Virus record (IMG/VR): IMGVR_UViG_2923344815_000006
DNA length: 18,657 nucleotides
Source of the DNA: a virus
Lineage: Duplodnaviria; Heunggongvirae; Uroviricota; Caudoviricetes
Reading direction: 5' to 3' (one strand)
Under the pieces are notes generated by a model that worked only from the letters and a program-made list of their open reading frames with translations, did no database searches and was not told the origin of the DNA. Of the stretch, positions 1 through 17,403 are shown piece after piece (the stretch's first letter is position 1; every line of letters begins with the position of its first letter). The translations under genes were made by a program, and so were the position numbers.

Positions 1-504
1 TTACTGATAGTGTTTTATGTTCAGATAATGCCCGATGACCTTGTCATGCAGCTCCACCGATTTTGAGAACGACAGTGACTTCCGTCCCAGCCTTGCCAGA
101 TGTTGTCTCAGATTCAGATTATGTCGCTCAATGCGCTGAGTGTAACGCTTGCTGATAACGTGCAGCTTTCCCTTCAGGCGTGATTCATACAGCGGCCAGC
201 CATCCGTCATCCATACCACGACCTCAAAGGCCGACAGCAGGCTCAGAAGACGCGCCAGTGTGGCCAGAGTGCGTTCACCGAAAACGTGCGCCACAACTGT
301 CCTCCGTATCCTGTCATACGCGTAAAACAGCCAGCGCTGACGTGATTTAGCACCGACGTAGCCCCACTGTTCGTCCATTTCCGCGCAGACAATCACATCA
401 CTGCCCGGTTGTATGCGCGAGGTTACCGACTGCGGCCTGAGTTTTTTAAGTGACGTAAAACCGTGTTGAGGCCAACGCCCATAATGCGGGCAGTTGCCCG
501 GCAT
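1..504 (-). CDS. insB: IS1 transposase InsB (made as InsAB fusion by frameshift)
   Basis: 167-aa translation recognised as IS1 InsB; overlaps insA in the -1 frame as in IS1. Confidence 0.9.
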
Positions 505-698
505 CCAACGCCATTCATGGCCATATCAATGATTTTCTGGTGCGTACCGGGTTGAGAAGCGGTGTAAGTGAACTGCAGTTGCCATGTTTTACGGCAGTGA
601 GAGCAGAGATAGCGCTGATGTCCGGCGGTGCTTTTGCCGTTACGCACCACCCCGTCAGTAGCTGAACAGGAGGGACAGCTGATAGAAACAGAAGCCAC
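423..698 (-). CDS. insA: IS1 protein InsA
   Basis: 91-aa translation ([23 protein letters not shown]...) recognised as IS1 InsA with zinc-finger cysteines. Confidence 0.9.
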
Positions 699-912
699 TG
701 GAGCACCTCAAAAACACCATCATACACTAAATCAGTAAGTTGGCAGCATCACCCACCATGCAGATAGTTAGCAATTCTTTAGTATCTTTTCTGCTCACAC
801 CAACCCCCTTTAGCGTTGTTTAGAATGGCAATCATCATATATCCAAGACATGGCATTTGGTACATAGCTTGGGTCGGGATTTCAAATCCGATCCCCGTTG
901 ATGGGGCCGTTA

Positions 913-1290
913 CAGTACGCGCATATCCGCTTTATGTGAAACAGGAAGATTTTTCTGATATCACTGCCACAGCAAAACACCAATTTCGTGACCAGTACGC
1001 GCGCGAGGGGTATCAGTTGCAAAAATTTTGCAACTACGTCCGACCAGTACGCACACGATGGCGGGGGATACCATGAAACTGTTCTCTACACGAGACAGAG
1101 TGGTGGTGATGTGTTGATTATCGGCGTATATGCGCACAGGACGCGCTATGACGATGTTTTATGCGGGTACACCAATCACATGTATCTGATGTGATAAATC
1201 GTGTTACATGACATCTCATGTTGTGCTGGTGGTTATCACGACGTTCTGAATCTGGCCTTTGCCTGATATTTTGCGACAAGTACGCGCGCG
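913..1290. repeat. Cluster of four copies of a (C/A)AGTACGCGCGCG-like motif plus a perfect 19-bp palindrome, in a non-coding region
   Basis: Motif copies at 913-922, 992-1005, 1044-1057 and 1277-1290; palindrome GTTGCAAAAATTTTGCAAC at 1016-1034; only short overlapping ORFs in the region. Confidence 0.5.
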
Positions 1291-1622
1291 TAGCATCGAA
1301 ATTATCGGATGGCGTATGCTGCTGGCAATATGAAGACCGATAGTATTAACCGAAAAGCGATTAAGGAGTGCCAACTTTTCAGTAGAGAAACTAGCCAGCA
1401 TAGGAAAATGTAGAAATTACCCAATTAATAGGTAAAAGTTATTGACACAGCCTGTAGTGGATAACGATATGAATAAAAACCACATATAGTGGTTTTTCGT
1501 GAGTGATGATAGTATCTATGTTAGTTTCCTAAGTAACTGTGCATTGACATGTGGATAACTTCGGATAGAGTTACAGGCAACCGAGCCCGATCCTCTGTTT
1601 CTCCGCCGCCGATTTCAGGCAT

Positions 1623-2645
1623 GTGAGTTTCACGGTCGGGCCTTTTATTATCTTTTGTTTCGCCACTATGATTGCCGCAAAGCCTCATAAGGACTATCAC
1701 GAATTGCTAGGATTGCTACTTGAACGTGGCATGATTATCAATGATCGAAATCGTGCGATACGTAAGCTGTCGCAGGTTGGATATTATCGATTGTCAGGTT
1801 TTTGGTACCCATCAAGAATTATTGCGACAACAGATAAAGGTCTTTCGTACAGAACAGACCGATTTCTTGCTGGTACCAGTTTCGAGAAGACGTACGATCT
1901 ATATCTTTTTGACAAAAAACTGCGTCTTTTGATGATTGATGCTATCGAAAGAATAGAGATTCATGTTCGTTCAGTCATCGCGCATGAGGTTGGTCGCAAT
2001 GATCCACTTGCCTACATGTCATCAAAATACATTAATCCAAAATTCTCATCTGCCTTCGAGCATTGGGTGTATAAGCAAAAAGTAAAATTAGACGAAAGCA
2101 GAGATGACTGTATTGAATGGCATCGAAGCCAAGGCAAGGAGATTCCATTTTGGGTGGCGGTGGAGACCTGGGATTTTGGTCAGATGTCTAAATATTATGC
2201 GATGCTTAATGGTCATATGCAGGGGAAAATTATACGTCGTTTTGGCATTGATAATAAGCAGACATTTGCAAAATGGTTGAAGTGCCTTAATCTCATAAGG
2301 AATCGTTGCGCTCACCATTCCAGAATATGGAATAGAAAGCATCCCCGAGTTCCAGTACCGGATAATGAATACTTTGACGGACTTAATCTCCATCCAGAGA
2401 GTTGCGAGAGGATTTTTAGCGCGATCTGTATTATCTGGTACTTAGTTAAACGACTTGGTCCGGGATCAACATGGCTTCGGCAAATTGCAGACCTTATTGA
2501 CTCTAAACCAAATGTTCCCGGATGTGGATATGATTCAATGGGTTTACCTGCTAAAGGATTCCCACGAGAGAGATTCTCTCAGGACTTAGGTTTTGTTATC
2601 GCCGACAACGACCCTGTAGCTGAAGGGCGGAAAGGGAGCGATTGA
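1623..2645 (+). CDS. Abi_2 family abortive-infection protein (AbiD/AbiF-like)
   Basis: N-terminal YHELLGLLLERGMII...YYRLSGFWYP and the RNRCAHHSRIWN motif are typical of the Abi_2 family; visibly AT-rich. Start uncertain (1623 or ATG at 1666). Confidence 0.75.
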   Translation: MSFTVGPFIIFCFATMIAAKPHKDYHELLGLLLERGMIINDRNRAIRKLSQVGYYRLSGFWYPSRIIATTDKGLSYRTDRFLAGTSFEKTYDLYLFDKKLRLLMIDAIERIEIHVRSVIAHEVGRNDPLAYMSSKYINPKFSSAFEHWVYKQKVKLDESRDDCIEWHRSQGKEIPFWVAVETWDFGQMSKYYAMLNGHMQGKIIRRFGIDNKQTFAKWLKCLNLIRNRCAHHSRIWNRKHPRVPVPDNEYFDGLNLHPESCERIFSAICIIWYLVKRLGPGSTWLRQIADLIDSKPNVPGCGYDSMGLPAKGFPRERFSQDLGFVIADNDPVAEGRKGSD

Positions 2646-2674
2646 GCGATAAATATCATTTATACACTGATCAA

Positions 2675-3115
2675 TTACTGAAGCAGCGTATTGATTCTTT
2701 TAATATTGTTACCCTGACGCTTCCACGCGCTGTAAATGTCTTTATCCCACGCTTTACCAGCTTTTGTTTGGTAGCCTGCTTCATTGAGCCGTTCCGCTAT
2801 CACACGCCCATTATCAAATCCCTGTCGGATGGTATCGGCAATGATCTTTATAACTGCCGTTTCGTTATATGGCTTTGGTGGGATGTTCGGCTTTCCGGCA
2901 ATAAGCGACGCAGCGGCTTTTTCCATGCGCTCCACCAGCCCAAGCATTCGTGAATCAATAGACTTTTCCGGCTGTCCCAGCTTCATGCGAATCGCATCAA
3001 CAAGCCAGGAGGTTTTATCCCCTCCAGAAGCGAGAACAGACCGATTAAACTCATCCTGCAATTCAGATGGGATGCGGAACGCGACCAGATTAGATTTGCT
3101 CATTGCAAAGACCAT
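2675..3115 (-). CDS. Hypothetical DNA-binding protein (RHH-like N-terminus; C-terminal LNEAGYQTKAGKAW recombinase-domain-like motif)
   Basis: 146-aa ORF convergent with the Abi gene, ending next to iteron block A; alternative ATG at 3103 (MSKSNL...). Confidence 0.55.
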   Translation of the reverse strand: MVFAMSKSNLVAFRIPSELQDEFNRSVLASGGDKTSWLVDAIRMKLGQPEKSIDSRMLGLVERMEKAAASLIAGKPNIPPKPYNETAVIKIIADTIRQGFDNGRVIAERLNEAGYQTKAGKAWDKDIYSAWKRQGNNIKRINTLLQ

Positions 3116-3216
3116 ATCAGTGAGTAATATCCATACAGTATACCACTGTATAACACTGTTATACGCTCAAATATCAGCCAGAAAATAACGGACCAATCAC
3201 AAAGCTATCGCTGTGT

Positions 3217-3338
3217 TGTTGGTTCAGAGCTGGGCTGTGTTGGTTCAAAATGAGTTGATGTTGGTTCAATATTTCAGAAAAAACACAATAAAAACAACGA
3301 TCTTTACAAATTGAACCAACTGAACCAACTGAACCAAC
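3217..3338. repeat. Iteron block A (origin-like): 3 direct TGTTGGTTCA repeats, AT-rich spacer, 3 tandem TGAACCAAC repeats
   Basis: Direct repeats at 3217, 3238 and 3259 (21-bp spacing); tandem inverse-orientation repeats at 3312-3338; near-identical block at 10049-10160. Confidence 0.8.
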
Positions 3339-3374
3339 ACCTTTTTGCTTATCTATATAATCTGAGAGGCAGAA

Positions 3375-3662
3375 ATGATAAGGGACAGGAAAGCTGAAGA
3401 ACTGGAGTCAAAAGGGCTATACCGGAGAGCTGCCGCACGATGGGCAGAAGTCATGATGCTGGCAGATGGCGATAAAGAACGTGAACATGCAGCAAACAGA
3501 CGCTCTGAATGTATCCGTAAGGCGGCACGCCCACCAGCAACTACAGACAGATTCGGAGATTTAAGACAGGCAGTTAAGCGGACTCATTCGGCTCTTGGTA
3601 TGGATGAGGAAGCGAGAGGGTATTTCAGGCGTTATCGCGATAAAGATTGCCAGAGACAGTAA
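3375..3662 (+). CDS. PerC-family transcriptional regulator-like protein
   Basis: 95-aa ORF; ELESKGLYRRAAARWAEVMM...RRSECIRKA resembles the PerC family common in E. coli prophages; GAGAGG Shine-Dalgarno upstream. Confidence 0.6.
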   Translation: MIRDRKAEELESKGLYRRAAARWAEVMMLADGDKEREHAANRRSECIRKAARPPATTDRFGDLRQAVKRTHSALGMDEEARGYFRRYRDKDCQRQ

Positions 3663-3920
3663 TGCTCTCTCTGTTTTGGCAAATTACCCCTCACTTTGAA
3701 GGGATCGGAGCTATAAAAATGGTGTTATCCGGCTTCCTGCATTGCAGGTTTTCGAAAGAATCAATGGGTTAGGTTATCGTGCAAATTTGCACTCTGCCAG
3801 CCAACGCAATTTCTCGTTGGCGGAAATATCAGGTATTTACTGAACGAACGGTCTACCCGCCTGTTCAACTACCAGTTGTACATGGCTGCTTTATGTGCAA
3901 ATGGTGGTGAGAGAAAATTG

Positions 3921-4022
3921 TTTGGGGGTACTTTTGGGGGTATCTCCAAAGATGTAACTGGAAAATGTCTTTATATATCAATGTATTTTTATTGTTTGTT
4001 TTGTTCCTATTATCGCACCATT
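3921..4022 (+). other. Distal att junction of the integrative element (arm-type sites plus imperfect core copy), inverted relative to thrW
   Basis: TTTGGGGGTACTTTTGGGGGTAT (3921-3943) matches rc of 17079-17104 next to the integrase gene; TCCTATTATCGCACCA (4005-4020) matches the tRNA 3-prime end with one 1-nt gap. Confidence 0.6.
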
Positions 4023-4254
4023 AAAATCAAAGAGTTACCCCATATTTAAATACACCACGTTTCCTCCTGTGCCGTATTTGTGCCATTGTAACCTTGGCAA
4101 TTCATCAAAATACTGTTCTGACATCAGGCAGTGCAGGTGCAGACATTTAAGCCAATTGCTGCCGCCATTCTTTGACGTAGTCAATCAGGGCGCGGAGCTG
4201 GTGATGCTGCCAACTTACTGATTTAGTGTATGATGGTGTTTTTGAGGTGCTCCA

Positions 4255-4530
4255 GTGGCTTCTGTTTCTATCAGCTGTCCCTCCTGTTCAGCTACTGACG
4301 GGGTGGTGCGTAACGGCAAAAGCACCGCCGGACATCAGCGCTATCTCTGCTCTCACTGCCGTAAAACATGGCAACTGCAGTTCACTTACACCGCTTCTCA
4401 ACCCGGTACGCACCAGAAAATCATTGATATGGCCATGAATGGCGTTGGATGCCGGGCAACTGCCCGCATTATGGGCGTTGGCCTCAACACGGTTTTACGT
4501 CACTTAAAAAACTCAGGCCGCAGTCGGTAA
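4255..4530 (+). CDS. insA: IS1 protein InsA
   Basis: Translation identical to the InsA ORF of copy 1. Confidence 0.9.
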
Positions 4531-4952
4531 CCTCGCGCATACAACCGGGCAGTGATGTGATTGTCTGCGCGGAAATGGACGAACAGTGGGGCTACGTCGG
4601 TGCTAAATCACGTCAGCGCTGGCTGTTTTACGCGTATGACAGGATACGGAGGACAGTTGTGGCGCACGTTTTCGGTGAACGCACTCTGGCCACACTGGCG
4701 CGTCTTCTGAGCCTGCTGTCGGCCTTTGAGGTCGTGGTATGGATGACGGATGGCTGGCCGCTGTATGAATCACGCCTGAAGGGAAAGCTGCACGTTATCA
4801 GCAAGCGTTACACTCAGCGCATTGAGCGACATAATCTGAATCTGAGACAACATCTGGCAAGGCTGGGACGGAAGTCACTGTCGTTCTCAAAATCGGTGGA
4901 GCTGCATGACAAGGTCATCGGGCATTATCTGAACATAAAACACTATCAGTAA
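4449..4952 (+). CDS. insB: IS1 transposase InsB
   Basis: Translation identical to the InsB ORF of copy 1. Confidence 0.9.
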
Positions 4953-4970
4953 GTTGGAGTCACTACCTGC

Positions 4971-5546
4971 ATGGTGTACTTTTCAATTTATTTTTGTGCA
5001 TACATGGTAGTCCCAGATGAGTTTGAACATGGCAGTATTATTTATTCCATAACATTCTATTTTTTAGAGCTAACACCAATTTTGGCTATCCTTTTGGCAA
5101 TACATATTTATTTTTCCTTAAAAAAAGAATCGACTAATTGGGAGAAGGTATGGAGAGACAGAGGATTTCTAACATCACCTAAAGATGATGCATATGAGAG
5201 TGATTTTTCTGACTTTATAACAAACTACTACTCCAGCGAACAATTCAAAAATAGACTGTCTGATGTTTGGGAAACAGCAATGTATTCCATAGGGATTATA
5301 TTATTGATACTTACTGGTATCGCTCAATATGTTTTTAACATTGACTTATCATTAAATCCTGAAAATTTAATATCGCCATTGATTTTTGGTGAGATATTGA
5401 TCTTCTCATTCGGAATTTTCTTGAGTGTTGTTCTCTGCTCATTATGCAAACTACTGACTAACAGGTATCCAGGTGAAGCAAGGAGAGCAAGAAAGGCAAA
5501 TCCATATTATCTTTTATTTCCTAATGGAGACAGCAGAGATATCTAA
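4971..5546 (+). CDS. Small integral membrane protein (3-4 predicted TM helices), 5-prime end disrupted by IS1
   Basis: 191-aa AT-rich ORF with hydrophobic stretches at about residues 1-13, 23-50, 103-122 and 133-162; starts 4 bp after the IS1 end; its predicted original start and first 15 codons lie at 798..754 on the minus strand. Confidence 0.6.
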   Translation: MVYFSIYFCAYMVVPDEFEHGSIIYSITFYFLELTPILAILLAIHIYFSLKKESTNWEKVWRDRGFLTSPKDDAYESDFSDFITNYYSSEQFKNRLSDVWETAMYSIGIILLILTGIAQYVFNIDLSLNPENLISPLIFGEILIFSFGIFLSVVLCSLCKLLTNRYPGEARRARKANPYYLLFPNGDSRDI

Positions 5547-5564
5547 GCCATCCATGGCTACCAG

Positions 5565-7670
5565 TTATTGAGCTTCTTTTTGTGATGCCTGTGCGACTCT
5601 GGTGAGCGATTGTGTGACCGTACTGATCGCTCTGTCATATGCTGTGCTACCTTTTGGCGTATTTGCCAGACGTAACAAGGCATTTCGTATAACAGGGCTT
5701 TCGTATGCCTTCGCTGCTCCGCCTACGGCACCAGCAGCAGGAACAACAAACGCAGCCGTTTTTAGCATCCCCGCTAATACTGCTGCGTTTATGATGCCAC
5801 CACCAACTAACAATCCATAAAGCTGCTGACCATTTAAGTTTTGAACGTTCGCTTTTGCCGCGTGTCTTGTATCGTTGAGGTATTTAATAACGCCGTCCAG
5901 TTCCTTTCCATGTACGCCTTTAAAGAAAGTTGCTGATTGCTTCCTGTTCCGGTGTAACGCATTAATAAACTTCTCAACACTGATATTTCCAGACGGATCA
6001 GTCGCCTTATCTACAGCATTCTGAACTATGGCTGCTCGTGCGTTTTGCCTACCATTGTCATCCAGAAGCCTGTAAAGCTGAGAACGTTCTGATGGGCTTT
6101 GGCTAAAAACGAGTTTTGTTACATCCTCAGGCGTGGCCTTGCCGCTGGCTATTGCCTTTTGAACGCGCGTTCTTCCCATCATGTCATTGAATTTAGACCA
6201 TGAGCGATCAACCCTTGCCATATTAATGGCTTCGTCTGCTCCAAGATTTTTGGCTACGGCTTTTTTCATATCCGCCGTATATGCCTTGTAGATAATATCG
6301 CTGGCTTTCTGGAGCGTATCTTTATCAACAGTGTCAGATGACGCCATAAATCGCTTTCGAAGATCGGTTCTGTTTTCCCTCGCCAGACGCAGGTCATTTG
6401 GTCCGCTGGTGATATCGTCTTTAAATTGCTGCAAGACTTTTACCGCGGCTCTATCCTGAGATTTGCCCGGGCGGCTTAACACGGCAATCTGATTGTCGAT
6501 AGCTTTTACCGTGTTTGAGAGATCGACAGGGGTATCCCCCATAGCGTCAATTATGCGGTTATATCGCTTTCCTGCTGCCTCAATGAATTTTTGTTGCCCT
6601 TTAGTCGCAGATTCATAAAGCTGTTTATCAGAAATGCCACCCAGACCATCGCTAAATGTTCTGACTAAATTTTCTCGTGCTTGTTGTTGATTCAGCCGAT
6701 TCTTACCGGTTCCAAAAAAAGGAACTCTTTCGCCTAATGTCTGAGCCTGACTCTGCATAAAGGTTTTATCTTTCAGCATGTCACTGGTCATTAACGGCAG
6801 ATTTCTTTCCGATGCAAAGTCGACAGCAGCCTTTGCTTCAGGCGACATATCACCACGAACAGCCCTCGAAACCGCACTCGCTGTATTTTCCAGCCCCTTA
6901 CCAATACCACCAATGCCAGCAGAAATTACCGTTTGTAACGGATCAATATCTTCTCCACCAGCAAGACTGGTGGCTCCCTGTAGTGCTAAATCTGTAGCTG
7001 CTGATTTTCCTATGGCACTAAGCACCGTTCCAGCCCTGCCCGCTGGTGTAAACGCCAACGCATTAGCAAGAAACGAGGTCAGGTCTTGCGGTGATAAACC
7101 CGGCTTGTTCAGGGCATAATCACCTGATGGCAGAGAAACGATAGTATTCCCCTTCTCATCCTGCCTTAATGTCGCCCCCATTCCCTGAAGAATCTTTTCC
7201 TGAGACGCGTCAGAGCCGAAAAGTTGAGACCATCCAGCCTTTAGGGCATCCATGCTTAGTGAGTTCAATTCTGGGGCAGAGGCGACATTTTGCAGTCTCT
7301 CCATCTCTGGAGTCATTCGGCTTTCGCCTGTTATAGCATCGCGCATCGCAGCCCCAAGACTGGCTCCCTGTTCTGCTGAACGCTCAAGCCCCTCTCTTTG
7401 CTGAGTAGCTAACTTTGCATACCCTGACGCAAGAGAATTATCAGATGATGTATGTTGAATATTTTGAGTTGCTGATTGGGATCGGTCTATTTCATTCGTT
7501 GATGGTAGTGGATAGGCAGCATAAAAAGCCTGCTTAGCCTGCTCTACACTTTCTCCGGCTTGCGGGGCCACGACTTCATTGAAGTATTGCTCCTGAGCCT
7601 GCGCTTTTTGTTCTGGTGCTAACGCCTGATACTGTGGAGAGGCGATAACATCTTTCCATGCTTTAGCCAT
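5565..7670 (-). CDS. Uncharacterised 701-aa Ala/Gln/Ser-rich protein with C-terminal hydrophobic Gly/Ala-rich segment
   Basis: Long ORF coupled to the upstream gene by a TAATG stop-start overlap; no enzymatic motif I recognise; hydrophobic segment LYGLLVGGGIINAAVLAGMLKTAAFVVPAAGAVGGAAKAY near the C-terminus. Confidence 0.7.
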   Translation of the reverse strand: MAKAWKDVIASPQYQALAPEQKAQAQEQYFNEVVAPQAGESVEQAKQAFYAAYPLPSTNEIDRSQSATQNIQHTSSDNSLASGYAKLATQQREGLERSAEQGASLGAAMRDAITGESRMTPEMERLQNVASAPELNSLSMDALKAGWSQLFGSDASQEKILQGMGATLRQDEKGNTIVSLPSGDYALNKPGLSPQDLTSFLANALAFTPAGRAGTVLSAIGKSAATDLALQGATSLAGGEDIDPLQTVISAGIGGIGKGLENTASAVSRAVRGDMSPEAKAAVDFASERNLPLMTSDMLKDKTFMQSQAQTLGERVPFFGTGKNRLNQQQARENLVRTFSDGLGGISDKQLYESATKGQQKFIEAAGKRYNRIIDAMGDTPVDLSNTVKAIDNQIAVLSRPGKSQDRAAVKVLQQFKDDITSGPNDLRLARENRTDLRKRFMASSDTVDKDTLQKASDIIYKAYTADMKKAVAKNLGADEAINMARVDRSWSKFNDMMGRTRVQKAIASGKATPEDVTKLVFSQSPSERSQLYRLLDDNGRQNARAAIVQNAVDKATDPSGNISVEKFINALHRNRKQSATFFKGVHGKELDGVIKYLNDTRHAAKANVQNLNGQQLYGLLVGGGIINAAVLAGMLKTAAFVVPAAGAVGGAAKAYESPVIRNALLRLANTPKGSTAYDRAISTVTQSLTRVAQASQKEAQ

Positions 7671-9148
7671 TAATCACCCCATAGTGAAGAAAAGTTACTG
7701 CTGGCTGCTGGCTGTGATACCTGCTCAGATTGCGGCAATGTCTGCGACGAAGAAGCAGTTCCTCTGTCAACTGCTGAAATAACCCGCAAAGCATCATAAG
7801 TTCGACCAGAAGCAGCTTTCAGCGAATTGAACTGGTTTTCCATCTTCCGGCGCTTGGTATCAATGGTTTTTGTGGAATCACCAGGCTGAGGGAAATACAT
7901 TTGATAATATTTGGACATTTCAGCTGGTAGGATAGATGCCCCTGTTTCCTGACGGAGTATTGCCATTATTGCGTCATTAGCATTAACAACGTATTGCTGC
8001 TCTGCTGGGCTGAGCGTTAAGTTAGCCAGCGTCCCATTACCCAAAGCATTATTAATGATCGCCACTCGCTGTGGGCTAAGCTGGTCTTTCAGTGTATCTA
8101 TTGAATCAAGAGCATCCCTAACCCTGTATGCAAATCCAGCAGCTTTTTTAGCCCCTTCTGGCGACTTTTCCATGATCTTTTGGGCTGTTGGCAAAGCTAT
8201 TGGACGAAACCCATCTCCAGATATTGGCTGGTTTAGTTTTCCCTGCTCTTCACTTCCGTCTGTGTAGTATTTTGTGACAGTGCCATCATCGTTTTCTCTA
8301 ACACTCATTAATTTTTTGGCGTTTGTATTAATTCCAGCCGCTGCCGCAAATGCCGCCGCCCCCTCTGGATCCGCCTTTAACATTTGAGCGTACTGATTGT
8401 AATTCTGCATTGCTGCTGTTGGTGCATATGCTGACGTTAACGCATTTGCTCGGCTAATATCCTGCCCTCTCGCCTGAAGTGCTTCGCCAGCCTGATTGCT
8501 GCGGATTGTCTCTGCCAACTTGCCACGCTCAATATCCCGACCTTCCATTTGATCTTTGATATCGAAATACTTCTCATGACCGAGAGAAAACAGCGCCAGA
8601 TTACCTGCGAAATGCTGGAAGCCCTGCGGGTCATTAACCTGCATTTCAGCAATAGTTTCTGGAGGGATACCTAAACGACGCATCTCCTGCTCATTATCCA
8701 TCATGAACCTGCCAAATGCGCCCTGACCAAGCGATGAGGCTACCTGTGCTTTGAGCGCCAGATTGCCATAATCATCCCTTTGAGCATCATCGACATAACT
8801 CATCCCTTTACGGACTTCCTCAAACTCTTCTGGGAATGCTGTAATAAGATTACGCATCTGCTCCCTGTCACCGGACGCATAAGCATCTGCATAAGCTTTC
8901 TGGAATGCCGCTTTACGCTCCTGCTGTTGCTGCTGCTTATAAATATCAGCAACGCCAGCCAGACCACGAAGACCTGTCAGAGCAACGTTATTTGCACCTG
9001 AGCGAGCCAGTTCATTGTTTTCGCGGATCAGACCAAGCGTTGCGTTAATGTCGCTTGCCTTTGGCGCATTCTCATTTTGCGTACCGATGCCAGCCAGAAA
9101 ACCACCAGAATTAATACCCTGTTGCCACGTAGCCATTGATTTACCCAC
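7670..9148 (-). CDS. Uncharacterised 492-aa Ala/Gln-rich low-complexity protein
   Basis: Long ORF; probable true start is ATG at 9136 (MATWQQ...) rather than the GTG at 9148; poly-Q stretch and Ala-rich tracts. Confidence 0.7.
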   Translation of the reverse strand: MGKSMATWQQGINSGGFLAGIGTQNENAPKASDINATLGLIRENNELARSGANNVALTGLRGLAGVADIYKQQQQQERKAAFQKAYADAYASGDREQMRNLITAFPEEFEEVRKGMSYVDDAQRDDYGNLALKAQVASSLGQGAFGRFMMDNEQEMRRLGIPPETIAEMQVNDPQGFQHFAGNLALFSLGHEKYFDIKDQMEGRDIERGKLAETIRSNQAGEALQARGQDISRANALTSAYAPTAAMQNYNQYAQMLKADPEGAAAFAAAAGINTNAKKLMSVRENDDGTVTKYYTDGSEEQGKLNQPISGDGFRPIALPTAQKIMEKSPEGAKKAAGFAYRVRDALDSIDTLKDQLSPQRVAIINNALGNGTLANLTLSPAEQQYVVNANDAIMAILRQETGASILPAEMSKYYQMYFPQPGDSTKTIDTKRRKMENQFNSLKAASGRTYDALRVISAVDRGTASSSQTLPQSEQVSQPAASSNFSSLWGD

Positions 9149-9314
9149 GTCCAGTTAAAGTGTAAGCCAGCGCCTTATCCATTAATCCCCGAGCAATTTC
9201 GTGGATCGTTGGCGCAACTCCTACCTCTGATTTTTTACGCTGCTCCTCCTGAATTTTCTTTATCGCTTCCATTTGCTTCTCACTTATCAATACTGGCTTT
9301 ACTGAAATAGCCAT
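9141..9314 (-). CDS. Small 57-aa protein, possible ribbon-helix-helix regulator (not in supplied ORF track)
   Basis: ATG at 9314 preceded by AAGGGGG Shine-Dalgarno; translation MAISVKPVLISEKQMEAIKKIQEEQRKKSEVGVAPTIHEIARGLMDKALAYTLTGRG; stops 5 nt before the 492-aa gene ATG. Confidence 0.5.
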   Translation of the reverse strand: MAISVKPVLISEKQMEAIKKIQEEQRKKSEVGVAPTIHEIARGLMDKALAYTLTGRG

Positions 9315-9348
9315 AACGCCCCCTTAGAACTGTATAAAACAACAGTCA

Positions 9349-9378
9349 TTATAGTTTCATAAAACGCAACATTCATCA
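9349..9378 (-). promoter_or_regulatory. Putative promoter of the 57/492/701 operon (consensus -10, weak -35)
   Basis: TATAAT on minus strand at 9354..9349, about 35 nt upstream of the 57-aa ORF start; no good -35 hexamer. Confidence 0.3.
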
Positions 9379-9407
9379 TTGTGATTGCAAAATATGAAAC
9401 AAATAGC

Positions 9408-9442
9408 ACAAAAAAATGCCACCGTTCAGTAGCTGGTGGCAT
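9408..9442 (-). terminator. Rho-independent terminator downstream of the 153-aa gene
   Basis: Minus-strand hairpin with 8-bp stem ATGCCACC/GGTGGCAT and 11-nt loop, followed by a run of 7 T. Confidence 0.7.
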
Positions 9443-9494
9443 CGTTCTGTATGTCAGGTTTTGACAGTTTTTTTATGGACTCTAAAAACTATAT

Positions 9495-9956
9495 TTATGG
9501 AGTCGCATTACTCTTCATGGCGTGAGCTTTCCTGTTCTCTCTTTGTTCCTGGTTCCATGGATAAGTGTAATTGCCACCAGCAAAGACCATATTGATTTTG
9601 TGAGGAACCATTAAAGCGATATCAGCACTCATGTCACTGAATGAAACACAGTGCAGACGTTCAAGCCATTTGTATGCTGCTGCCGCTTCTCCCCACAAAT
9701 TAATCCCTGCAAGTTCAACAATATCTCTGATGGAGCAGATATCAACCATCCCGTTAACGCCTGTAAAACGGCGTTTAAAGTCGCCAAGATACTTTCTGAA
9801 AAGAGTTGCTTTCATTGGTTCAGAAAGGTCTATGTATGGGAACACAACCACATCAAGCAGCATCTCCCTTCTGTTGTTCATCGGTATTACAGATGGCAAA
9901 TCGGATACTTTGCCAAATACATGATGAAAAGCCTTTGCGATTATCTTCATCATCAA
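9495..9956 (-). CDS. Hypothetical 153-aa protein
   Basis: ORF with GGGAG Shine-Dalgarno; probable start ATG at 9953; between iteron block B and its own terminator; no recognised motif. Confidence 0.6.
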   Translation of the reverse strand: MMMKIIAKAFHHVFGKVSDLPSVIPMNNRREMLLDVVVFPYIDLSEPMKATLFRKYLGDFKRRFTGVNGMVDICSIRDIVELAGINLWGEAAAAYKWLERLHCVSFSDMSADIALMVPHKINMVFAGGNYTYPWNQEQRENRKAHAMKSNATP

Positions 9957-10048
9957 TCTCCCACTGAAACCAGTGATGTGGTGTTCAGATTTCGTAAAAC
10001 ACTCTCTAATGCCAGCCAGATGTTGTGCTCATCAATTCAGTCACGTTG

Positions 10049-10160
10049 TGTTGGTTCAAAATGCCGTGTTGTTGGTTCAGTGTTGGTTCAATAAAAAGAA
10101 TAAAATCCTTATAAAACAATACTCTTTACAAATTGAACCAACTGAACCAACTGAACCAAC
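10049..10160. repeat. Iteron block B (origin-like), same organisation as block A
   Basis: TGTTGGTTCA at 10049, 10070 and 10081; tandem TGAACCAAC at 10134-10160; shares CTTTACAAATTGAACCAACTGAACCAACTGAACCAACACCTTTT with block A; lies just 3-prime of the helicase-like gene. Confidence 0.8.
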
Positions 10161-10185
10161 ACCTTTTCTACGCACATGAAGAAGC

Positions 10186-11316
10186 TCATTCTTCAGATGA
10201 GTTGTAATCTCCTGGCTGGTAATTGAGTACATAAACGTTTATTTGTCGTCCCTGAATACGTGGTGATTTTCTTTGGTATCCACGACCGCTGTTTGGTGGG
10301 GTTAGCATCCCGGCTTTTTTCAACACTTCAGCAAACTGTTTTGCGTTGAAACCACATGCGATCTCCTTTTCAAATGTGGCCGGGAATGTGTAGAAAATCA
10401 TTGGGCTTTCGTCATGTTCTCCACGCTGACGGTATCCGGCTAAATCTTTGATGGGCAAATCTGCCGGGCTGTATGGAAATGGTGCAAAACGGCTAAGCCC
10501 ATAGGCATTAAGAAATGCCTCCGTTTGTTCAATAATCTGCTGATGCTCTTTGTTACCTGTGCCGAACTCGCGCAACCATGCGTTATAGCTGTGCTGTATC
10601 GCATCACGGCATGTCTGAGCATCCCAGCCTGTTACAACCTCGCCTAACAACAATGCGGCCTCCAGAATGGCAAATCGCGCGGCTACACGGTGAACCTGCT
10701 CACCATAATCGGATGGGATCAGGCTTCTCCATCTGCTTTCGCAGTCACGAACAGTTTTAATAGCCTGTTGCTGGTGGTCTGCCAGCCATTTAATCCACTC
10801 ACGCCCGGACGCGCCGTGGTGATGCTGGTAAGCGTCTTTCAGTGCGTCTGCGTGCTGTTTTCCGTTCTGGTAATCGTGAAAGCGTACTGCTTTACTCAAC
10901 GGAATATTCAGCAGTCGCACCATTTGCCCGGCTTTGGTTTTTCGCCCGGAAGTAGCGATAAATGTTTCTAAATCCATTTCTCCGGTGCTGATTGCCACTG
11001 TACGCCAGCGTTTTAGATCCCGGTTTCCACCATCTTTAGCGCCTTGCAGTTTCCCTACACCGTTAAATAACGCATAGGCAGACTGTGAAACACTGACAGG
11101 ATCAGCGCCCTGACCAACTTCATCAAGCGGCATTAGTCCGTCATTGTGGGCGGCAGCTTCATTTGCCAGCCCCAGCGCGGTTCCGTACCACGTCAGCCGC
11201 AGTAAATCAGGGTTGCCGTATAAGCTGCTCGCCACGTTTGCCGTGGTGGTCTTACCTGCGCTCGACTGCTCATAGAAATGAATGCCGAACCCGTCAGCGC
11301 CCACCAGCCCAATCAA
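10186..11316 (-). CDS. DUF927/SF3 helicase-like replication protein (P4 alpha / PICI Rep C-terminal type), apparently 5-prime-truncated
   Basis: Walker A (SSAGKTT) within ...AAHNDGLMPLDEVGQ...RWRTVAISTGE...KAGQMVRLLNIP, typical of the DUF927 helicase domain; ORF-track start is a TTG; in-frame stop at 11374-11376 with no ATG upstream. Confidence 0.65.
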   Translation of the reverse strand: MIGLVGADGFGIHFYEQSSAGKTTTANVASSLYGNPDLLRLTWYGTALGLANEAAAHNDGLMPLDEVGQGADPVSVSQSAYALFNGVGKLQGAKDGGNRDLKRWRTVAISTGEMDLETFIATSGRKTKAGQMVRLLNIPLSKAVRFHDYQNGKQHADALKDAYQHHHGASGREWIKWLADHQQQAIKTVRDCESRWRSLIPSDYGEQVHRVAARFAILEAALLLGEVVTGWDAQTCRDAIQHSYNAWLREFGTGNKEHQQIIEQTEAFLNAYGLSRFAPFPYSPADLPIKDLAGYRQRGEHDESPMIFYTFPATFEKEIACGFNAKQFAEVLKKAGMLTPPNSGRGYQRKSPRIQGRQINVYVLNYQPGDYNSSEE

Positions 11317-11429
11317 TGGCGCTGCCAGTGCTGCGCCGATCCCGGTCAGCCCAGCACATGAGGCCAGTTGTTTTCAGACGCACTGATAACCTGACGGATA
11401 AGATCAATGTTTCGCATTCTGGCCCCCGT

Positions 11430-12032
11430 TTAGTGCGTCACTGGTGCTTCTGGGATGCCGTTTTCGTTTAGTTCGGCAATAAAGCTGTTGTGAAGATCGG
11501 CAAGCACTTCTCGCCCAAACGAAGTGAGTGTTCCCTGTTCGACATCGAACATGTTGCTGTAAAAAATGATGGCATTCTTTGTTCCGACATCAACACCATA
11601 TTTCTCGATCATTGCGCCCTCAATGTTGTTTGCCATAGCGAGGCGCTCTGCTACTGGATACAGCGGCATGGCGACGATGCCATTGGAATAAACAGAAACC
11701 ACGGAATGATTGCCACTGTCATCAATAATGCTGACGGTGCCGTTTCCCTTTCTCATTTCATTGATGAATGCTGTTGCTATCAGCCAGCGCCACATAATCA
11801 CGTGATGCTGTGATGTGTAATCGAAATATCCCTGGTTGCCGCCACTGGCAATAGCGAGATGTATAAACATGCCTTCATCTGGTTTATCGTCATAATCCCC
11901 GGCATCCAGACGATTTACGGCATCAATATATGAGACGGTCTCAACGCGTTCTGTCATGCCATCGTTGCTGCGGTGCATGATGTTTACGCCGTCAGGCGTT
12001 GCTTCTGCATGGAAGGTTAAGAAATTATTCAT
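11430..12032 (-). CDS. Hypothetical 200-aa protein (upstream of the helicase-like gene, different frame)
   Basis: ORF-track ORF 11430..12137; probable start ATG at 12032 (MNNFLTF...), overlapping the upstream gene stop by 8 nt. Confidence 0.5.
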   Translation of the reverse strand: MNNFLTFHAEATPDGVNIMHRSNDGMTERVETVSYIDAVNRLDAGDYDDKPDEGMFIHLAIASGGNQGYFDYTSQHHVIMWRWLIATAFINEMRKGNGTVSIIDDSGNHSVVSVYSNGIVAMPLYPVAERLAMANNIEGAMIEKYGVDVGTKNAIIFYSNMFDVEQGTLTSFGREVLADLHNSFIAELNENGIPEAPVTH

Positions 12033-12246
12033 GTTTCGCCTCGCCTGAATGATTCTGTAACTCATATTTGCCCAACAATTCGTCTGCTTCCTGAATAGCT
12101 TCTGGTACGCCATTGAGCAGTGACATAACCGCGCCAATCATTAACTTGTCTCTGTTGCTGGGGCTGGCCCCTTCAAGCCAGAACCCTAAAACAGTCTGAA
12201 CCTGTTCGATGCGACATTGCGCTTCAATGAGCTGGATGTTGGTCAT
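12025..12246 (-). CDS. Hypothetical small protein (73 aa)
   Basis: ATGA stop-start overlap with the upstream gene at 12243-12246. Confidence 0.5.
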   Translation of the reverse strand: MTNIQLIEAQCRIEQVQTVLGFWLEGASPSNRDKLMIGAVMSLLNGVPEAIQEADELLGKYELQNHSGEAKHE

Positions 12247-12506
12247 TTCGCACTCTCCACATCGATTAAACTGATATCTATCAGGGAGGTAACTTTTTGT
12301 AGCCAGCTATTGATTACTGTCGCCTGTTCCCCTCCCACCGAGGGAATAATCTCATTCATCACATGAACCAGACCTGTGCGCGCTCTGGTAAGCCGTTCAG
12401 TCGCGCAATCTGCGGGAGTGAATGTGTCTGGATATGGCTCTTCGCGCCCCAGCAATGATTCAATTTCCAGCTCACACGGATGACGATAAATTAAGTTGAT
12501 ATTCAT
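12243..12506 (-). CDS. Hypothetical small protein (87 aa)
   Basis: ATGA stop-start overlap with the upstream gene at 12503-12506. Confidence 0.5.
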   Translation of the reverse strand: MNINLIYRHPCELEIESLLGREEPYPDTFTPADCATERLTRARTGLVHVMNEIIPSVGGEQATVINSWLQKVTSLIDISLIDVESAK

Positions 12507-12697
12507 TTTTCACCCCCAAGAATTACCAGCTCGGCACGGGCATCGTTAACCAAAGATGAGCACGCTTTAATCGCATCCACGACATCAGCAGCGTCCATTT
12601 CTTCAGCCGAAAGACTGACAGCAACCAGGACAGCCGCTGCTTGCTCGATTAATTGAAGTGCGGACGTAAGGCGAGGGGTATTAATTGAGTTATTCAT
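12503..12697 (-). CDS. Hypothetical small protein (64 aa from ATG 12697; ORF-track alternative start 12754)
   Basis: Internal ATG ([10 protein letters not shown]...) 8 nt upstream of the preceding gene stop, consistent with the coupling seen along this gene chain. Confidence 0.45.
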   Translation of the reverse strand: MNNSINTPRLTSALQLIEQAAAVLVAVSLSAEEMDAADVVDAIKACSSLVNDARAELVILGGEK

Positions 12698-13757
12698 TGG
12701 TTGCCCCCGTTTTGCATGGCATTTGTCCACCTTCCAGCAGGAAATGAACGTCACGAACGGCGAGATCCAATATCGCGAGTAACGCCTTCAGTTTTTCGTC
12801 TCGTGAGGGAGAGTTGCTCACCAGAATGTCATTAATCACTTCTGTCAGTGTGATGATCTGGCTTGTGCGTTCGAGGGGATCCATATGCACATCGTAGGTT
12901 TTAATCATGTGCCACCTCCATGCGGATACGACCAGCAAAAAAGCAGACGTGATCGCGCACCAGAGAACGGCGAGCATCGCGTTCAGACTCGGCAGCAATA
13001 TGATGAATTTTGGCGGTAATTGTCGGGCAATCGCGGCGAACTGCGGCGATAATCCAGATAAATTGCGGTTTTTGGGTAGGGGTAGTAGCCAGCATGTGGC
13101 AGCCTCCATTCGATAGCATGTAACGCTACCACCGGAAACGCCAATTTCGCTGGTGGTAGCCCAGACAGGGTTGGCGTAACCGGCTCGAATGGATACCGGC
13201 GCTTCCGAAGAAGCCCCTGCCTGAGCCACCATTGATTGACAAAGGCGCTGGATTATACACCAACGCCCAAAAAATGGGTGAGTCAGACCTACGACATAAA
13301 AAAAGACGCTCGGCGCGTCATATGTCGCCATTCGATTTACCAGGACGCCAATCCCGGCACCCGTTTTATGAGGTGCCTTATAACCATAAACCGTGTTGCC
13401 GCATAACGGCAAGCTCTTTTTTATGGACTCCGAAAACTCACTATTGGAAGAACCAGAAGCACAGTACATCGCGCTCATTTCGTTAACGTCACGCGCGTGG
13501 ACGAATGTTTTTGTGGAGTCACTACACGAGCAGAACAGGTCATCTACGACCAGAAATTCTCTGGCGCAGCCGCTGACCTTCTCAACGCTAACATCATCGA
13601 CCGTGATTTCTGACATAGTTAAGGCATCCGCTCCTACCACCAGCAAATGATAAACTTTGCTTGTATCTGCTGTATTAATGCCTGACTTTGCTGTCATATT
13701 GCTGGATTTTGGCGACATGCCAGCCAGTGAAAATGTCTTCTTCTGGGCGGTTAGCAT
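12690..13757 (-). CDS. Long ORF of uncertain coding status; C-terminal 72 codons from ATG 12907 look like a genuine small helical protein
   Basis: 356-codon open frame coupled to the upstream gene, but the central part is Trp/Cys-rich and not protein-like, and 12900-13120 is open in three frames. Confidence 0.3.
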
Positions 13758-13933
13758 TTGTTAACCTCCGCGAACTCCTTCATGAAACGTGCCAGCGGTT
13801 GTACGCATGGCGATTGATACCCGTCGCGATAAAACGTCACTCGGTTGTGAGACACGCTTTCGACAGTAACGAGTGCTCCGTGGGCATCTTTGTAGCGTTT
13901 TTGAGGTTGTGGTGTTCCTGTCGGCTTAAACAT
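13751..13933 (-). CDS. DUF4222-like small phage protein
   Basis: 60-aa product from ATG 13933 (ORF-track ORF starts at 14020); RYKDAHGALVTVESVSHNRVTFYRDGYQSPCVQPLARFMKEF resembles the DUF4222 family. Confidence 0.6.
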   Translation of the reverse strand: MFKPTGTPQPQKRYKDAHGALVTVESVSHNRVTFYRDGYQSPCVQPLARFMKEFAEVNKC

Positions 13934-14759
13934 GGACCGCCTCCAGACGCTTAGCGAGCCAGCGTTGCGACAGGCGGGTGAGTTCTCCTTTGCGCTGCTC
14001 ATATTCCATGCCCATATCAATTAACGTGATATTGGTGCTTTCGAGATATGAGAGGTGCTCAAGCTGTTCTGCGTTCATATGGTCGCGAGGTTCGCCAGAA
14101 TAGCCATTTATCCGCGCCCACTGCTTAGCAGTTAGCCCACCAAGAACGATACGAGAAATCATATTGCTCTCGTTTGTGTAGTGGTGTTGCTGCGTCGTTT
14201 TCCCCTGCTCGGCACGGGCCATGTTCAGCGCATCGCACATTGGCTTAAAGTTGTTTGCGGCACTGATACGGGCTTTTAGCTGGCGACGATAGCGGGCGGC
14301 GATTTCAGGAACGCTACGCTGTAATTCTTCCTCGCACTGGATGAAATAACGACGGATAGCGCGACCCTGATCATTGCGTTCGATCATTGCCAGTTCTTTC
14401 GCCATTCCGACACTTAACAGATAGTCTTTGCCGGGTCTGCCAGAGTGCTTAATCTTGCTGTAAGCCGCGCCATTCGGGCTTTTCCCCAAATTTGGGGAAA
14501 TTGTTTTATGGACTGAGTAATCGTGCCCAATGGTGAAGTCATATTCAGAGATGCGATCAGTGATCCATGTAGAGAAGTCTTTTCCCACGCCCAACGCTTT
14601 GTGTAACGCTTTTGCGCTAACAATATTGGTTTCACGCCCACCTATATGACCAGGAATAACCGGGACAATTGCGGCAAATTCATTACCGTTAATTGTGCCC
14701 AGAGAGGCGTTCAGATGAGGGGCAGCCTCAGAAATTAATCTGCTTTTTTCGATGTTCAT
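13926..14759 (-). CDS. Phage antirepressor-like protein (Bro-N / KilAC type)
   Basis: 277-aa ORF; DYLLSVGMAKELAMIERNDQGRAIRRYFIQCEEEL is characteristic of antirepressor DNA-binding domains; GGAG Shine-Dalgarno. Confidence 0.65.
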   Translation of the reverse strand: MNIEKSRLISEAAPHLNASLGTINGNEFAAIVPVIPGHIGGRETNIVSAKALHKALGVGKDFSTWITDRISEYDFTIGHDYSVHKTISPNLGKSPNGAAYSKIKHSGRPGKDYLLSVGMAKELAMIERNDQGRAIRRYFIQCEEELQRSVPEIAARYRRQLKARISAANNFKPMCDALNMARAEQGKTTQQHHYTNESNMISRIVLGGLTAKQWARINGYSGEPRDHMNAEQLEHLSYLESTNITLIDMGMEYEQRKGELTRLSQRWLAKRLEAVHV

Positions 14760-14771
14760 TTTCAGTCTCCG

Positions 14772-15203
14772 TTAGGCGGCGTTAAACGCGTCCGGGTAGA
14801 GTTTCAGAATGTCGGCAATTTCCTGCTGAGAAAGTCCGTTGTGATCATTTATGTTCGCAAGATGGTTAATATGAGTGATCACTTTCAGAACATCACCACG
14901 GCAGGAGAAACGGTAGCGAAGGTGTGTTCCGATACCATCAGGATTCTTTTCGTCGATACGCTCCAGAGTGATTCCGAGCTGGCGTTCTAACTCTGTTGCA
15001 TAGTTACGACCAGAAGACAGACGGCAGTAGCGAAGAATGTCATTTTCTGTCCATCCCTCTATACCAGTACGCAGCATATAGACTCGGGCACGATGCTTTT
15101 TCGGCGTGCGCTTTGGTGCTTGAAGGGATTTTGTCAGGGGCGTAACATCAGATACGCGAATATCTGAATTAGCCGCCTGTAATGGGCGGTTTTTCTTTTC
15201 CAT
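14772..15203 (-). CDS. Hypothetical phage-related protein (143 aa)
   Basis: ORF coupled to alpA by a TGATG stop-start overlap; basic N-terminus; no recognised motif. Confidence 0.55.
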   Translation of the reverse strand: MEKKNRPLQAANSDIRVSDVTPLTKSLQAPKRTPKKHRARVYMLRTGIEGWTENDILRYCRLSSGRNYATELERQLGITLERIDEKNPDGIGTHLRYRFSCRGDVLKVITHINHLANINDHNGLSQQEIADILKLYPDAFNAA

Positions 15204-15406
15204 CAGGCCACCTCGTCTCTAGATTCTAATATACACTTCTCAATCCATTCATCTATTTCAGACTCAACAAAAGCAATTGCCCGACTTCCAATTTTTACCT
15301 GTTTAGGGAACCTCCCCTGACTAATAAGACGATAAATCCATGCTTTGCTATAACCAGTTCGCCTTTGAACTTCAGAGAGACGAATTAATGAATTGTAATT
15401 AGCCAT
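15203..15406 (-). CDS. alpA: AlpA-family transcriptional regulator (excisionase-like HTH)
   Basis: 67-aa product IRLSEVQRRTGYSKAWIYRLISQGRFPKQVKIGSRAIAFVESEIDEWI matches the AlpA family; located next to the integrase gene. Confidence 0.85.
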   Translation of the reverse strand: MANYNSLIRLSEVQRRTGYSKAWIYRLISQGRFPKQVKIGSRAIAFVESEIDEWIEKCILESRDEVA

Positions 15407-15833: not shown

Positions 15834-17048
15834 TCATGCGTGTTTTTCAAACACCATATGCACCACATTTCCGCCATGCTCGAGAGAATCCATATAGTCG
15901 GCATACCATTGAAGCATCTCCCGCCGTCCATCCAGATATTGCGCATGGTTGTATGTGCCACGAATTGAGTTCTTATCAACGTGAGCGAGCTGCGTTTCTA
16001 TCCACGCGGTGTTATAGCCCTGCTCATGCAAAATCGTGCTCATAGTGTGTCGGAACCCATGACCAGTTACACGTCCAGCGTAGCCAATGCGCTTAAACAC
16101 TTGGTTTATGCTGGCCTCACTCATTGTTTTCCTTGGATCATTGCGCCCGGGAAACATAAGAGGGTAATTGCCTGTTATTTCTCTAATCTTCCCAATAAGC
16201 GAAAGAGCCTGCTCAGACAATGGCACAATATGAGGCCGCCGCATTTTCATACGTGAAGCGGGTATCTCCCATATAGCCTTGTTGAAATCAATTTCATCCC
16301 ATAATGCGCCACGTAGTTCGCCAGTTCGCAAGCCGGTGATAATCAGTAGGCGAGCCGCCATAACAACCAATGCGCTTCCTGAGTAACTGGATAATGCCTT
16401 GAAAAAATCAGGTAATTCTTTGGTCGTAAGGAAAGGGTAATGATTAGATTCATGGCCTTGCATCGCGCTAGTAAGGTCTGGTGCAGGGTTATACTCTGCG
16501 CGACCAGTGACTATTGCATAGCGGAAAACTTCCCCGCACCGCTGCCTCACTTTTTTGGCTTTTTCTGTCGCACCGCGCCCCTCGATGCGCCGCAGCACAT
16601 TCAGAAGTTCAAGTGGTTTGATTTCGGCGATTGGTTTTTTGCCAATGTAAGGGAACACATCTTTGTTGAAGGCTTCGAGGATGTCTGAAGCATAACCAGC
16701 AGACCATTTTTTTAATTTGCTGCTGTGCCACTCAAGGGCAATATCTTTGAAGGTGTTGTTTAACTGCGTTTCCCGGGCAATCTTTTCCTCTCGTTTCGCT
16801 TCCATCGGATCGATACCACCAGCGATACCTCTTTTCGCATCTTCACGTTTTGCCCGAGCATCGGCTAGAGTAACCTCAGGATACACACCTAGTGCCAATA
16901 GCTTCTCTTTACCTGCTACACGATATTTAAGTCGCCAGTATTTACCTCCATTAGGTTTTACCAAGAGATACAAACCGCCACCATCGGCCAGCTTGTAAGC
17001 CTTCTCTTTTGGCTTGGCTGTGTCTATTTGACGGGCATTGAGTTTCAC
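15834..17048 (-). CDS. P4-type tyrosine integrase (DUF4102 arm-binding N-terminus)
   Basis: 404-aa product; N-terminal ...AKPKEKAYKLADGGGLYLLVKPNGGKYWRLKYR... and C-terminal R..HGFRHT..Y-type catalytic region; GTG start with GGAGG Shine-Dalgarno; adjacent to the tRNA. Confidence 0.9.
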   Translation of the reverse strand: MKLNARQIDTAKPKEKAYKLADGGGLYLLVKPNGGKYWRLKYRVAGKEKLLALGVYPEVTLADARAKREDAKRGIAGGIDPMEAKREEKIARETQLNNTFKDIALEWHSSKLKKWSAGYASDILEAFNKDVFPYIGKKPIAEIKPLELLNVLRRIEGRGATEKAKKVRQRCGEVFRYAIVTGRAEYNPAPDLTSAMQGHESNHYPFLTTKELPDFFKALSSYSGSALVVMAARLLIITGLRTGELRGALWDEIDFNKAIWEIPASRMKMRRPHIVPLSEQALSLIGKIREITGNYPLMFPGRNDPRKTMSEASINQVFKRIGYAGRVTGHGFRHTMSTILHEQGYNTAWIETQLAHVDKNSIRGTYNHAQYLDGRREMLQWYADYMDSLEHGGNVVHMVFEKHA

Positions 17049-17049
17049 T

Positions 17050-17213
17050 TGGGGGTACCTCCACTAAACCGAACAGCAAATACCCCCATAAGTACCCCCA
17101 TCTGACCGTAGATTTTGAGGGACTTTAGTAGACGTCAAAAGACGAACGGGGCTTTAATACGTGGATTATAAGGGGTTTTGAAAGACTTTAGTAGACTTGG
17201 GGAGATGTTTGAA
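17050..17213 (-). other. Proximal att arm between tRNA-Thr and integrase, with arm-type repeats
   Basis: GGGGGTA-type motifs at 17051-17057, 17082-17088 and 17094-17100; 13-bp direct repeat GACTTTAGTAGAC at 17121-17133 and 17184-17196; same arm motif recurs at 3921-3943. Confidence 0.6.
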
Positions 17214-17289
17214 TGGTGCCGATAATAGGAGTCGAACCTACGACCTTCGCATTACGAATGCGCTGCTCTACCAACTGAGCTATATCGGC
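17214..17289 (-). tRNA. thrW: tRNA-Thr (anticodon CGT)
   Basis: Reverse complement reads GCCGATATAGCTCAGTTGGTAGAGCAGCGCATTCGTAATGCGAAGGTCGTAGGTTCGACTCCTATTATCGGCACCA: canonical cloverleaf, CGT anticodon, CCA end. Confidence 0.95.
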
Positions 17290-17403
17290 CCTGAAAGGAC
17301 ATGTTCACGAACGTGAATCACGGTGGACAAGGTTAAAACTAACCGGGCGATGCGTCAATGGCCTTGTGAATCAAATGGCTACTTTTGCATCACCCGGTTT
17401 TAT

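Follow-up and report, generated by a model that had tools for sequence, protein, structure and literature searches.

The locus

The window, the whole stretch of DNA analysed here, comprises 18,657 nucleotides (IMG/VR record IMGVR_UViG_2923344815_000006). Its features are collected in Table 1. The only tRNA gene in the window is thrW, encoding tRNA-Thr(CGU). On the same strand lie the gene for a tyrosine integrase (Arm-DNA-bind_3, 1.4e-28; Phage_int_M, 1.3e-34; Phage_integrase, 1.8e-26) and alpA; int followed by alpA at one end is the arrangement of a phage-inducible island (PICI). At the other end of the window there are two copies of IS1.

Table 1. Features of the window bearing on the attachment sites and the inversion.
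Feature	Position	Strand	Basis or remark
IS1 copy A	1..753	-	inverted relative to copy B, 100% identical over 753 nt; last 15 bp beyond the window edge
Inverted segment, 3,446 bp	754..4199	.	Abi, 146-aa ORF, iteron cluster A, PerC, attR, 179 bp of flank
9-bp IS1 target duplication CACCATGCA	754..762	+	single copy in E. coli F5656C1 (L001 13055-13063)
Abi	1668..2645		inside inverted segment
Iteron cluster A	3215..3345		inside inverted segment
PerC	3375..3662		inside inverted segment
P arm, two direct GGGGGTA	3921..3943	+	presumed arm-type sites for the integrase N-terminal domain
AT-rich spacer, 75% A+T	3944..4004	+	conserved ATCAA at 3977-3981; possible DNA-bending (IHF-like) segment
attR core TCCTATTATCG-CACCA and shared TT	4005..4022	+	copy of the thrW 3′ end without one G
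Displaced flank: thrW-downstream intergenic DNA and end of the yagP LysR pseudogene	4021..4199	+	runs into paoD in uninverted genomes
IS1 copy B, complete, 768 bp	4200..4967	+	
Same target duplication, reverse-complemented, TGCATGGTG	4968..4976	+	each copy of the duplication adjoins an IS1 end
AlpA regulator/excision factor	15203..15406	-	same protein accession annotated in F5656C1 and MP1
Tyrosine integrase with Arm-DNA-bind_3 N-terminal domain	15834..17048	-	domain search
Third GGGGGTA, inverted	17049..17057	+	overlaps the int Shine-Dalgarno sequence and GTG start
P′ arm, two direct GGGGGTA	17080..17102	-	invariant in 44 attL regions
Two GTCTACTAAAGTC repeats, 63 bp apart, in P′ arm	17113..17196	-	conserved in aligned attL regions
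thrW; last 17 nt (17214-17230) = attL core TCCTATTATCGGCACCA	17214..17289	-	tRNA search, alignment

The closest described element is EcCIMP1, a 20-kb PICI of E. coli MP1 in a tRNA-Thr gene between proA and yagU (PMC11773190). Excision, circularisation and transfer of EcCIMP1 by the P22-like phage Kapi1 require int and alpA (PMC11773190). When the MP1 locus (L129) is set against the window, the integrase differs at no more than one residue and AlpA is identical. Both islands occupy the same site and share the order int, alpA, antirepressor, Ash, primase, P22-like ejection genes and PerC. EcCIMP1 is intact and mobile, whereas the window has two IS1 copies, an inverted 3.4-kb end, a 1,523-bp deletion in the primase gene and Abi as cargo. 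Judged by its sequence, the window is a rearranged EcCIMP1-family PICI with a P4-type integrase, a member by descent of which this copy is defective. No relatives of sid, psu or delta were found in 20 protein scans of the larger ORFs, and a P4-like satellite in the strict sense was rejected for that reason.

Several other features of the island can be recorded here. Two Rfam families scored above the gathering threshold, C4 antisense RNA at 13149-13236 (-; 79.5 bits) and isrK at 13299-13376 (-; 67.1 bits). Both matches lie inside the region read as the Ash-family ORF, which suggests a P1/P4-style RNA-based immunity; the island thus does have an antisense RNA of the C4/CI type. P22-type ejection genes are found within 4971-9148, with Inj_translocase/gp20 at 7670-9148 and a gp16-like gene at 5565-7670. 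A SieA-like gene in this region has its N-terminus cut off by IS1, and relatives also carry gp7 and DUF2824 genes. For a satellite with a P22-like phage, Kapi1, as its known helper, such genes are an unusual cargo. There are two iteron clusters, at 3215-3345 upstream of PerC and at 10047-10167 just downstream of the primase gene, built of GTTGGTTCA/TGAACCAAC and about 85% alike. They resemble an origin and a second cis site. Upstream of the Abi_2 gene is an 870-bp non-coding stretch with three copies of GACCAGTACGCGCGCG and related repeats (983-1294), to which no Rfam family matched.

The integrase-distal junction

The arm motif TTTGGGGGTACTTTTGGGGGTAT lies on the plus strand at 3921-3943 and contains two direct GGGGGTA repeats, at 3924-3930 and 3936-3942. 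Its sole other relative within the window is GATGGGGGTACTTATGGGGGTAT, at 17080-17102 on the minus strand, which is identical to it at 20 of 23 bases; a repeat search pairs the two arms as a 21-nt inverted repeat, 95% complementary. Two matches to the motif occurred in none of 200 dinucleotide-preserving shuffles of the window, and the near identity of the two motifs claimed in an earlier note on this DNA holds.

After a gap of 61 nt comes the core TCCTATTATCGCACCA, at 4005-4020 on the plus strand, which equals the thrW 3′ end TCCTATTATCGGCACCA minus one G (16/17). The TT at 4021-4022, immediately after the core, is also common to the thrW side. By our own calculation, about 1e-5 exact matches to a 16-mer are expected by chance in 2 x 18.7 kb. 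The earlier note had placed a copy of the thrW 3′ end with a single 1-nt gap some 60 bp beyond the arm; the copy, the gap and the spacing stand, and the position it implied must be moved, as the core begins one base to the left. The distal arm and core are thus on the plus strand, whereas thrW and int are on the minus strand.

The stretch 3921-4022 is attR, the integrase-distal junction of an EcCIMP1-family PICI in the 3′ end of thrW. It was proposed in the same note as the arm-plus-core distal junction of a tRNA-integrated element, and this is borne out by the same layout in the attR of relatives and by island-free DNA, in which the flank starts at the core.

The chromosomal flank

In strain 10035776-3 (L002), where the site is unoccupied, the yagP remnant directly follows thrW. 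A 361-bp probe for the empty junction was covered to at least 80% in 948 of 5,426 complete E. coli genomes. The homology of the window to empty-site genomes starts at the core, at window position 4005. A copy of the tRNA 3′ end is therefore followed by its native downstream flank, with the copy in the window on the opposite strand. That 4021-4199 is displaced chromosomal flank had been suggested from the letters alone; aligned with the DNA downstream of thrW, it matches in L002 and in those 948 genomes. In uninverted relatives, F5656C1 among them, Abi, PerC and the iteron cluster sit between int and attR, and the assignment of this region to the element was likewise correct.

In E. coli K-12 the yagP-side flank of CP4-6 is identical to window 4021-4199. 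CP4-6, a cryptic prophage in thrW, likewise lies between proA-thrW and yagP-paoD. It is nevertheless a separate element: its integrase gene is a different one, intF, situated next to yagP, and its thrW repeat is 49 nt long and has GG.

The alleles of thrW itself differ by a compensatory pair in the T stem. The window (17225-17245) and K-12 have GTAGG...CCTAT, and the empty-site strain L002 (3985-4005) has GGAGG...CCTCT. One of these alleles may be derived from an element, as elements with long cores (CP4-6, 49 nt) would replace both halves together.

In two further genomes, L137 (GCA_014857235.1) and L139 (GCA_046580495.1), Abi-PerC is followed by Bro-N and yicG-ligB-gmk-rpoZ-spoT instead of yagP, so that the Abi-PerC module must have a second chromosomal location or be shared with a different element. 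Neither of the two showed a GGGGGTA arm.

The true limits of the island in the window are thus 4968-17213 and 754-4020, and 4021-4199 belongs to the chromosome. These corrected limits keep Abi and PerC from being annotated as chromosomal genes.

The IS1 inversion

The reference free of IS1 is the island of E. coli F5656C1. There the order is proA, thrW, int, alpA, primase, P22-like ejection genes, a SieA-like gene, Abi, a small hypothetical ORF, PerC, arm, core, yagP′ (the LysR pseudogene) and paoDCBA, collinear and in one orientation. By blastn, window 754-4199 equals L001 13055-16500 at 100% on the plus strand, whereas window 4968-11348 (L001 13063-6683) and window 15060-18638 (L001 3579-1) match on the opposite strand. 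The segment 754-4199 is flipped relative to the rest of the island, and the breakpoints fall exactly at the two inverted IS1 copies. The reference is not complete in every respect. Between L001 3572 and 3579, corresponding to window 12936-15059, F5656C1 is without 2.1 kb present in the window and in EcCIMP1 (a 143-aa ORF, the AntA antirepressor, DUF4222 and part of Ash), and the reference island is therefore itself partly deleted.

Of the two IS1 copies, one was inserted in the island between the SieA-like gene and Abi and the other in the yagP pseudogene. Inverted IS copies with target duplications in reverse complement are the signature of IS-mediated inversion, as described for IS26 and Tn4401 (PMC4471558). 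The window has the same features: two inverted IS1 copies bracketing inverted DNA, a collinear IS-free reference, and a target-length 9-bp sequence at each copy, one the reverse complement of the other. It differs from the IS26 and Tn4401 cases in showing only one of the two expected duplication pairs. A second duplication, CGCGGAGCT, is at 4191-4199, and its partner falls outside the window. That the junction reads on the wrong strand through an IS1-mediated inversion, as had been supposed, agrees with the uninverted order in F5656C1. The relative orientation of the two iteron clusters was altered by the same event.

IS1-family elements appear to use replicative transposition (PMC4471558). 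The inversion could have arisen in one step by intramolecular replicative transposition of IS1 ("in trans"), or by two IS1 insertions followed by homologous recombination; the sequence fits both routes alike. The DNA to the left of the window is predicted to be the 15-bp IS1 end followed by AGCTCCGCG, the rest of yagP and paoD.

The main competing explanation is that the inversion is an assembly artefact, the wrong flanks having been joined across the identical 768-bp IS1, or that the culture was a mixture of both orientations. The two copies are indeed 100% identical over 753 nt, and the window begins inside copy A, with the far side of the inversion unseen. Neither the arrangement yagP′-IS1-SieA-like nor an IS1 at either insertion site occurs in the 5,426 complete E. 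coli genomes. Short junction patterns cannot tell the inverted from the uninverted form, as the DNA beside a given IS1 end is the same in both. A search with the truncated SieA-like gene as marker gave two short-read drafts that share the IS1/CACCATGCA junction (GCA_000614435.2 and SRR5296512); their contigs stop inside IS1, leaving the orientation unreadable. With Abi as marker, the ten longest contexts with Abi-PerC-attR were all uninverted. Nevertheless, the window covers IS1 copy B from end to end and continues into unique sequence to the left and right of it. Inverted IS copies commonly give rise to inversions, and the pattern of flanking duplication fits such an event. We regard an artefact or a mixture as distinctly unlikely, and the identity of attR, the assignment of the flank and the island boundary hold even so.

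Attachment sites in related islands

The comparison of both arms with the att sites of related elements, which the earlier note had called for, was made with 80 IMG/VR loci whose integrases are 86-100% identical to that of the window. Among these, 44 distinct attL regions could be aligned. All 44 have both direct GGGGGTA repeats, and the inverted copy that overlaps the int start, without any change, amid DNA that diverges. Conservation extends to two GTCTACT motifs and to AAATCTAC. The GTCTACTAAAGTC repeats of the P′ arm are candidate sites for AlpA or an accessory protein.

Distal junctions were sought with a pattern of two GGGGGTA, 45-75 bases of any kind and the core, in which the second G was optional. 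The search gave 36 sites beyond that of the window, and the GGGGGTA repeats are invariant in the 37 junctions. The spacers are AT-rich and strongly diverged in sequence; their length, for which 45-75 nt were allowed, is 58-64 nt, and 61-63 nt in 35 of 37. A strict IHF consensus is present in the spacer of 8 of the 37, and the interpretation of the spacer as a strict IHF site was dropped for that reason. What is retained is an AT-rich segment whose length is conserved and which contains a conserved ATCAA.

The core with a single G is found in 31 of the 37 distal junctions, beside many unrelated right-hand flanks, and ten further E. coli loci are alike. The remaining six attR-like junctions have GG, two of them being tandem island-island junctions. 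All 44 attL regions have GG; one of them (L008) has a separate C-to-A change just before it. The GG is required for the acceptor stem of the tRNA. The attR of EcCIMP1 has the arm GGGGGTACTTTTGGGGGTAT, a 63-nt spacer and the single-G core. Since this mobile island carries the single G, the 1-nt gap is a conserved family trait of the distal junction, not damage or decay, and a decay that blocks excision was ruled out on the same evidence.

The origin of the two core versions is indicated by a contig in which the host thrW has the other T-stem allele. Its attL is CCTCTTATCGGCACCA and its attR CCTATTATCG-CACCA, on the same strand and 15 kb apart. The attL is of the host type and the attR of the island type, which makes the island the source of the left part of the attR core. 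Strand exchange would then lie to the right of the G, in CACCAT/T, a position that the six GG junctions keep from being fully fixed. From these alignments we infer that the single-G core is the form carried by the island itself, since all of attR left of the crossover is island DNA. It is conceivable, if doubtful, that the conserved 1-nt difference between the cores of island and tRNA is a designed asymmetry, by which exchange would be confined to the final 5-7 bases of the tRNA gene. For EcCIMP1 only TCCTATTATC was given as the repeat, and arm sites were not described (PMC11773190); the conserved 1-nt indel explains why the repeat was given in this short form.

A free attP with the P arm, core and P′ arm of this island gave no matches in an exact-pattern search of IMG/VR. 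A looser pattern gave five junctions, of which at least three are clear tandem island-island junctions (L115, L119 and L131) and two have a different arm motif. Both G and GG are present among them, and the attP sequence is not directly readable from these junctions. In the IMG/VR contigs L130 and L132 the single-G thrW core is unchanged, but the arm that lies about as far upstream of it consists of two TGTGTATAG repeats, which suggests a second integrase lineage with another arm specificity and the same core.

The arm and the core-like 16-mer might also belong to a second, tandem element or to the decayed remains of an older integration. Tandem arrays at thrW do exist (L006, MP1, L115 and L119), and the core is one base off thrW. 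Against this, F5656C1 has a single island between thrW and the junction, and no second integrase or attL lies between int and the position equivalent to 3921 in uninverted relatives. The arm repeats match those beside the island's own integrase, the flank that begins right after the core equals that of the empty site, and the single G is the norm of the family, present in mobile EcCIMP1. A foreign origin of the junction is highly improbable.

The junction is best understood, then, as the island's own attR. The GGGGGTA repeats would be arm-type sites bound by the N-terminal arm-binding domain of the integrase. The AT-rich, bendable spacer of fixed length would allow the same integrase molecules to reach the core, where strand exchange would take place within the final bases of the tRNA gene or immediately past them (CACCAT/T). 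In the classical architecture a single integrase contacts both an arm site and a core site, with the DNA bent between them (PMC2951348). The conserved motifs of the two arms, which keep a fixed distance to the core, together with an arm-binding integrase, fit that architecture. The att sites of the window resemble those of the P4 family and the lambda type: repeated arm motifs flank a short core derived from a tRNA 3′ end, and the integrase possesses an arm-binding domain. They differ in that the GGGGGTA arms and their layout are putative and that the cores of island and tRNA differ by a 1-nt indel. An arm site overlapping the int start, as in the window, is also found in the attL promoter region of KplE1 intS (PMC2951348), and the GGGGGTA copy over the int start is likely to be an autoregulatory site.

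Mobility of the island

The att repeats, direct in the relatives as is expected of a PICI, are inverted in the window. As attL and attR are inverted, Int and AlpA presumably cannot release a circle. The primase gene (TOPRIM/DUF927; 10186-11417) has in addition an internal, out-of-frame deletion of 1,523 bp by comparison with F5656C1 and MP1. The deletion junction, at 11347/11348, has 2 nt of microhomology, and the C-terminal 376 aa are left, so that the primase is not intact. The inverted att sites and the primase deletion most likely leave the island of the window immobile. Helper-phage-induced excision and packaging are predicted to have been lost in this copy.

A different history, in which an excised circle was captured beside an empty thrW by an IS1 cointegrate formed from the IS1 in yagP and then inverted by Int through attB x attP, gains something from the geometry, since Int recombination of the present inverted attL and attR would give exactly an IS1-flanked island beside a restored thrW-yagP′, but it needs more steps than an IS1 inversion of the integrated island, which close relatives commonly have in uninverted form and with 100% identity, and it is highly improbable.

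The window retains int, alpA and the two att sites in an intact form that matches mobile EcCIMP1, and it is conceivable for this reason that a helper phage could still trigger Int/AlpA recombination of the inverted attL and attR. About 13 kb would be flipped, and the island would be a helper-inducible invertible segment. We consider this doubtful. If it were true, the flip would bring thrW and its native flank together again. The whole island would then contain an attP and be bracketed by two IS1 copies in direct orientation, so that its loss, or its movement as an IS1 composite, would become possible.

Concluding remarks

We give a probability of roughly 0.85 to the explanation as a whole, which comprises the attR of an EcCIMP1-family PICI, the way in which the site would work, the single-G core, the IS1 inversion and the immobility of this copy. 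The case is an ordinary one, a known type of site and a known type of IS event, and general views on site-specific recombination and IS rearrangement are unchanged by it. For the family it adds detail on the att sites beyond what has been published, namely GGGGGTA on both arms, a spacing of about 62 nt and an arm over the int start. The family core extends past the published TCCTATTATC and has a conserved 1-nt indel. One copy of a recently described PICI family is thus most likely immobilised by IS1 and a primase deletion.
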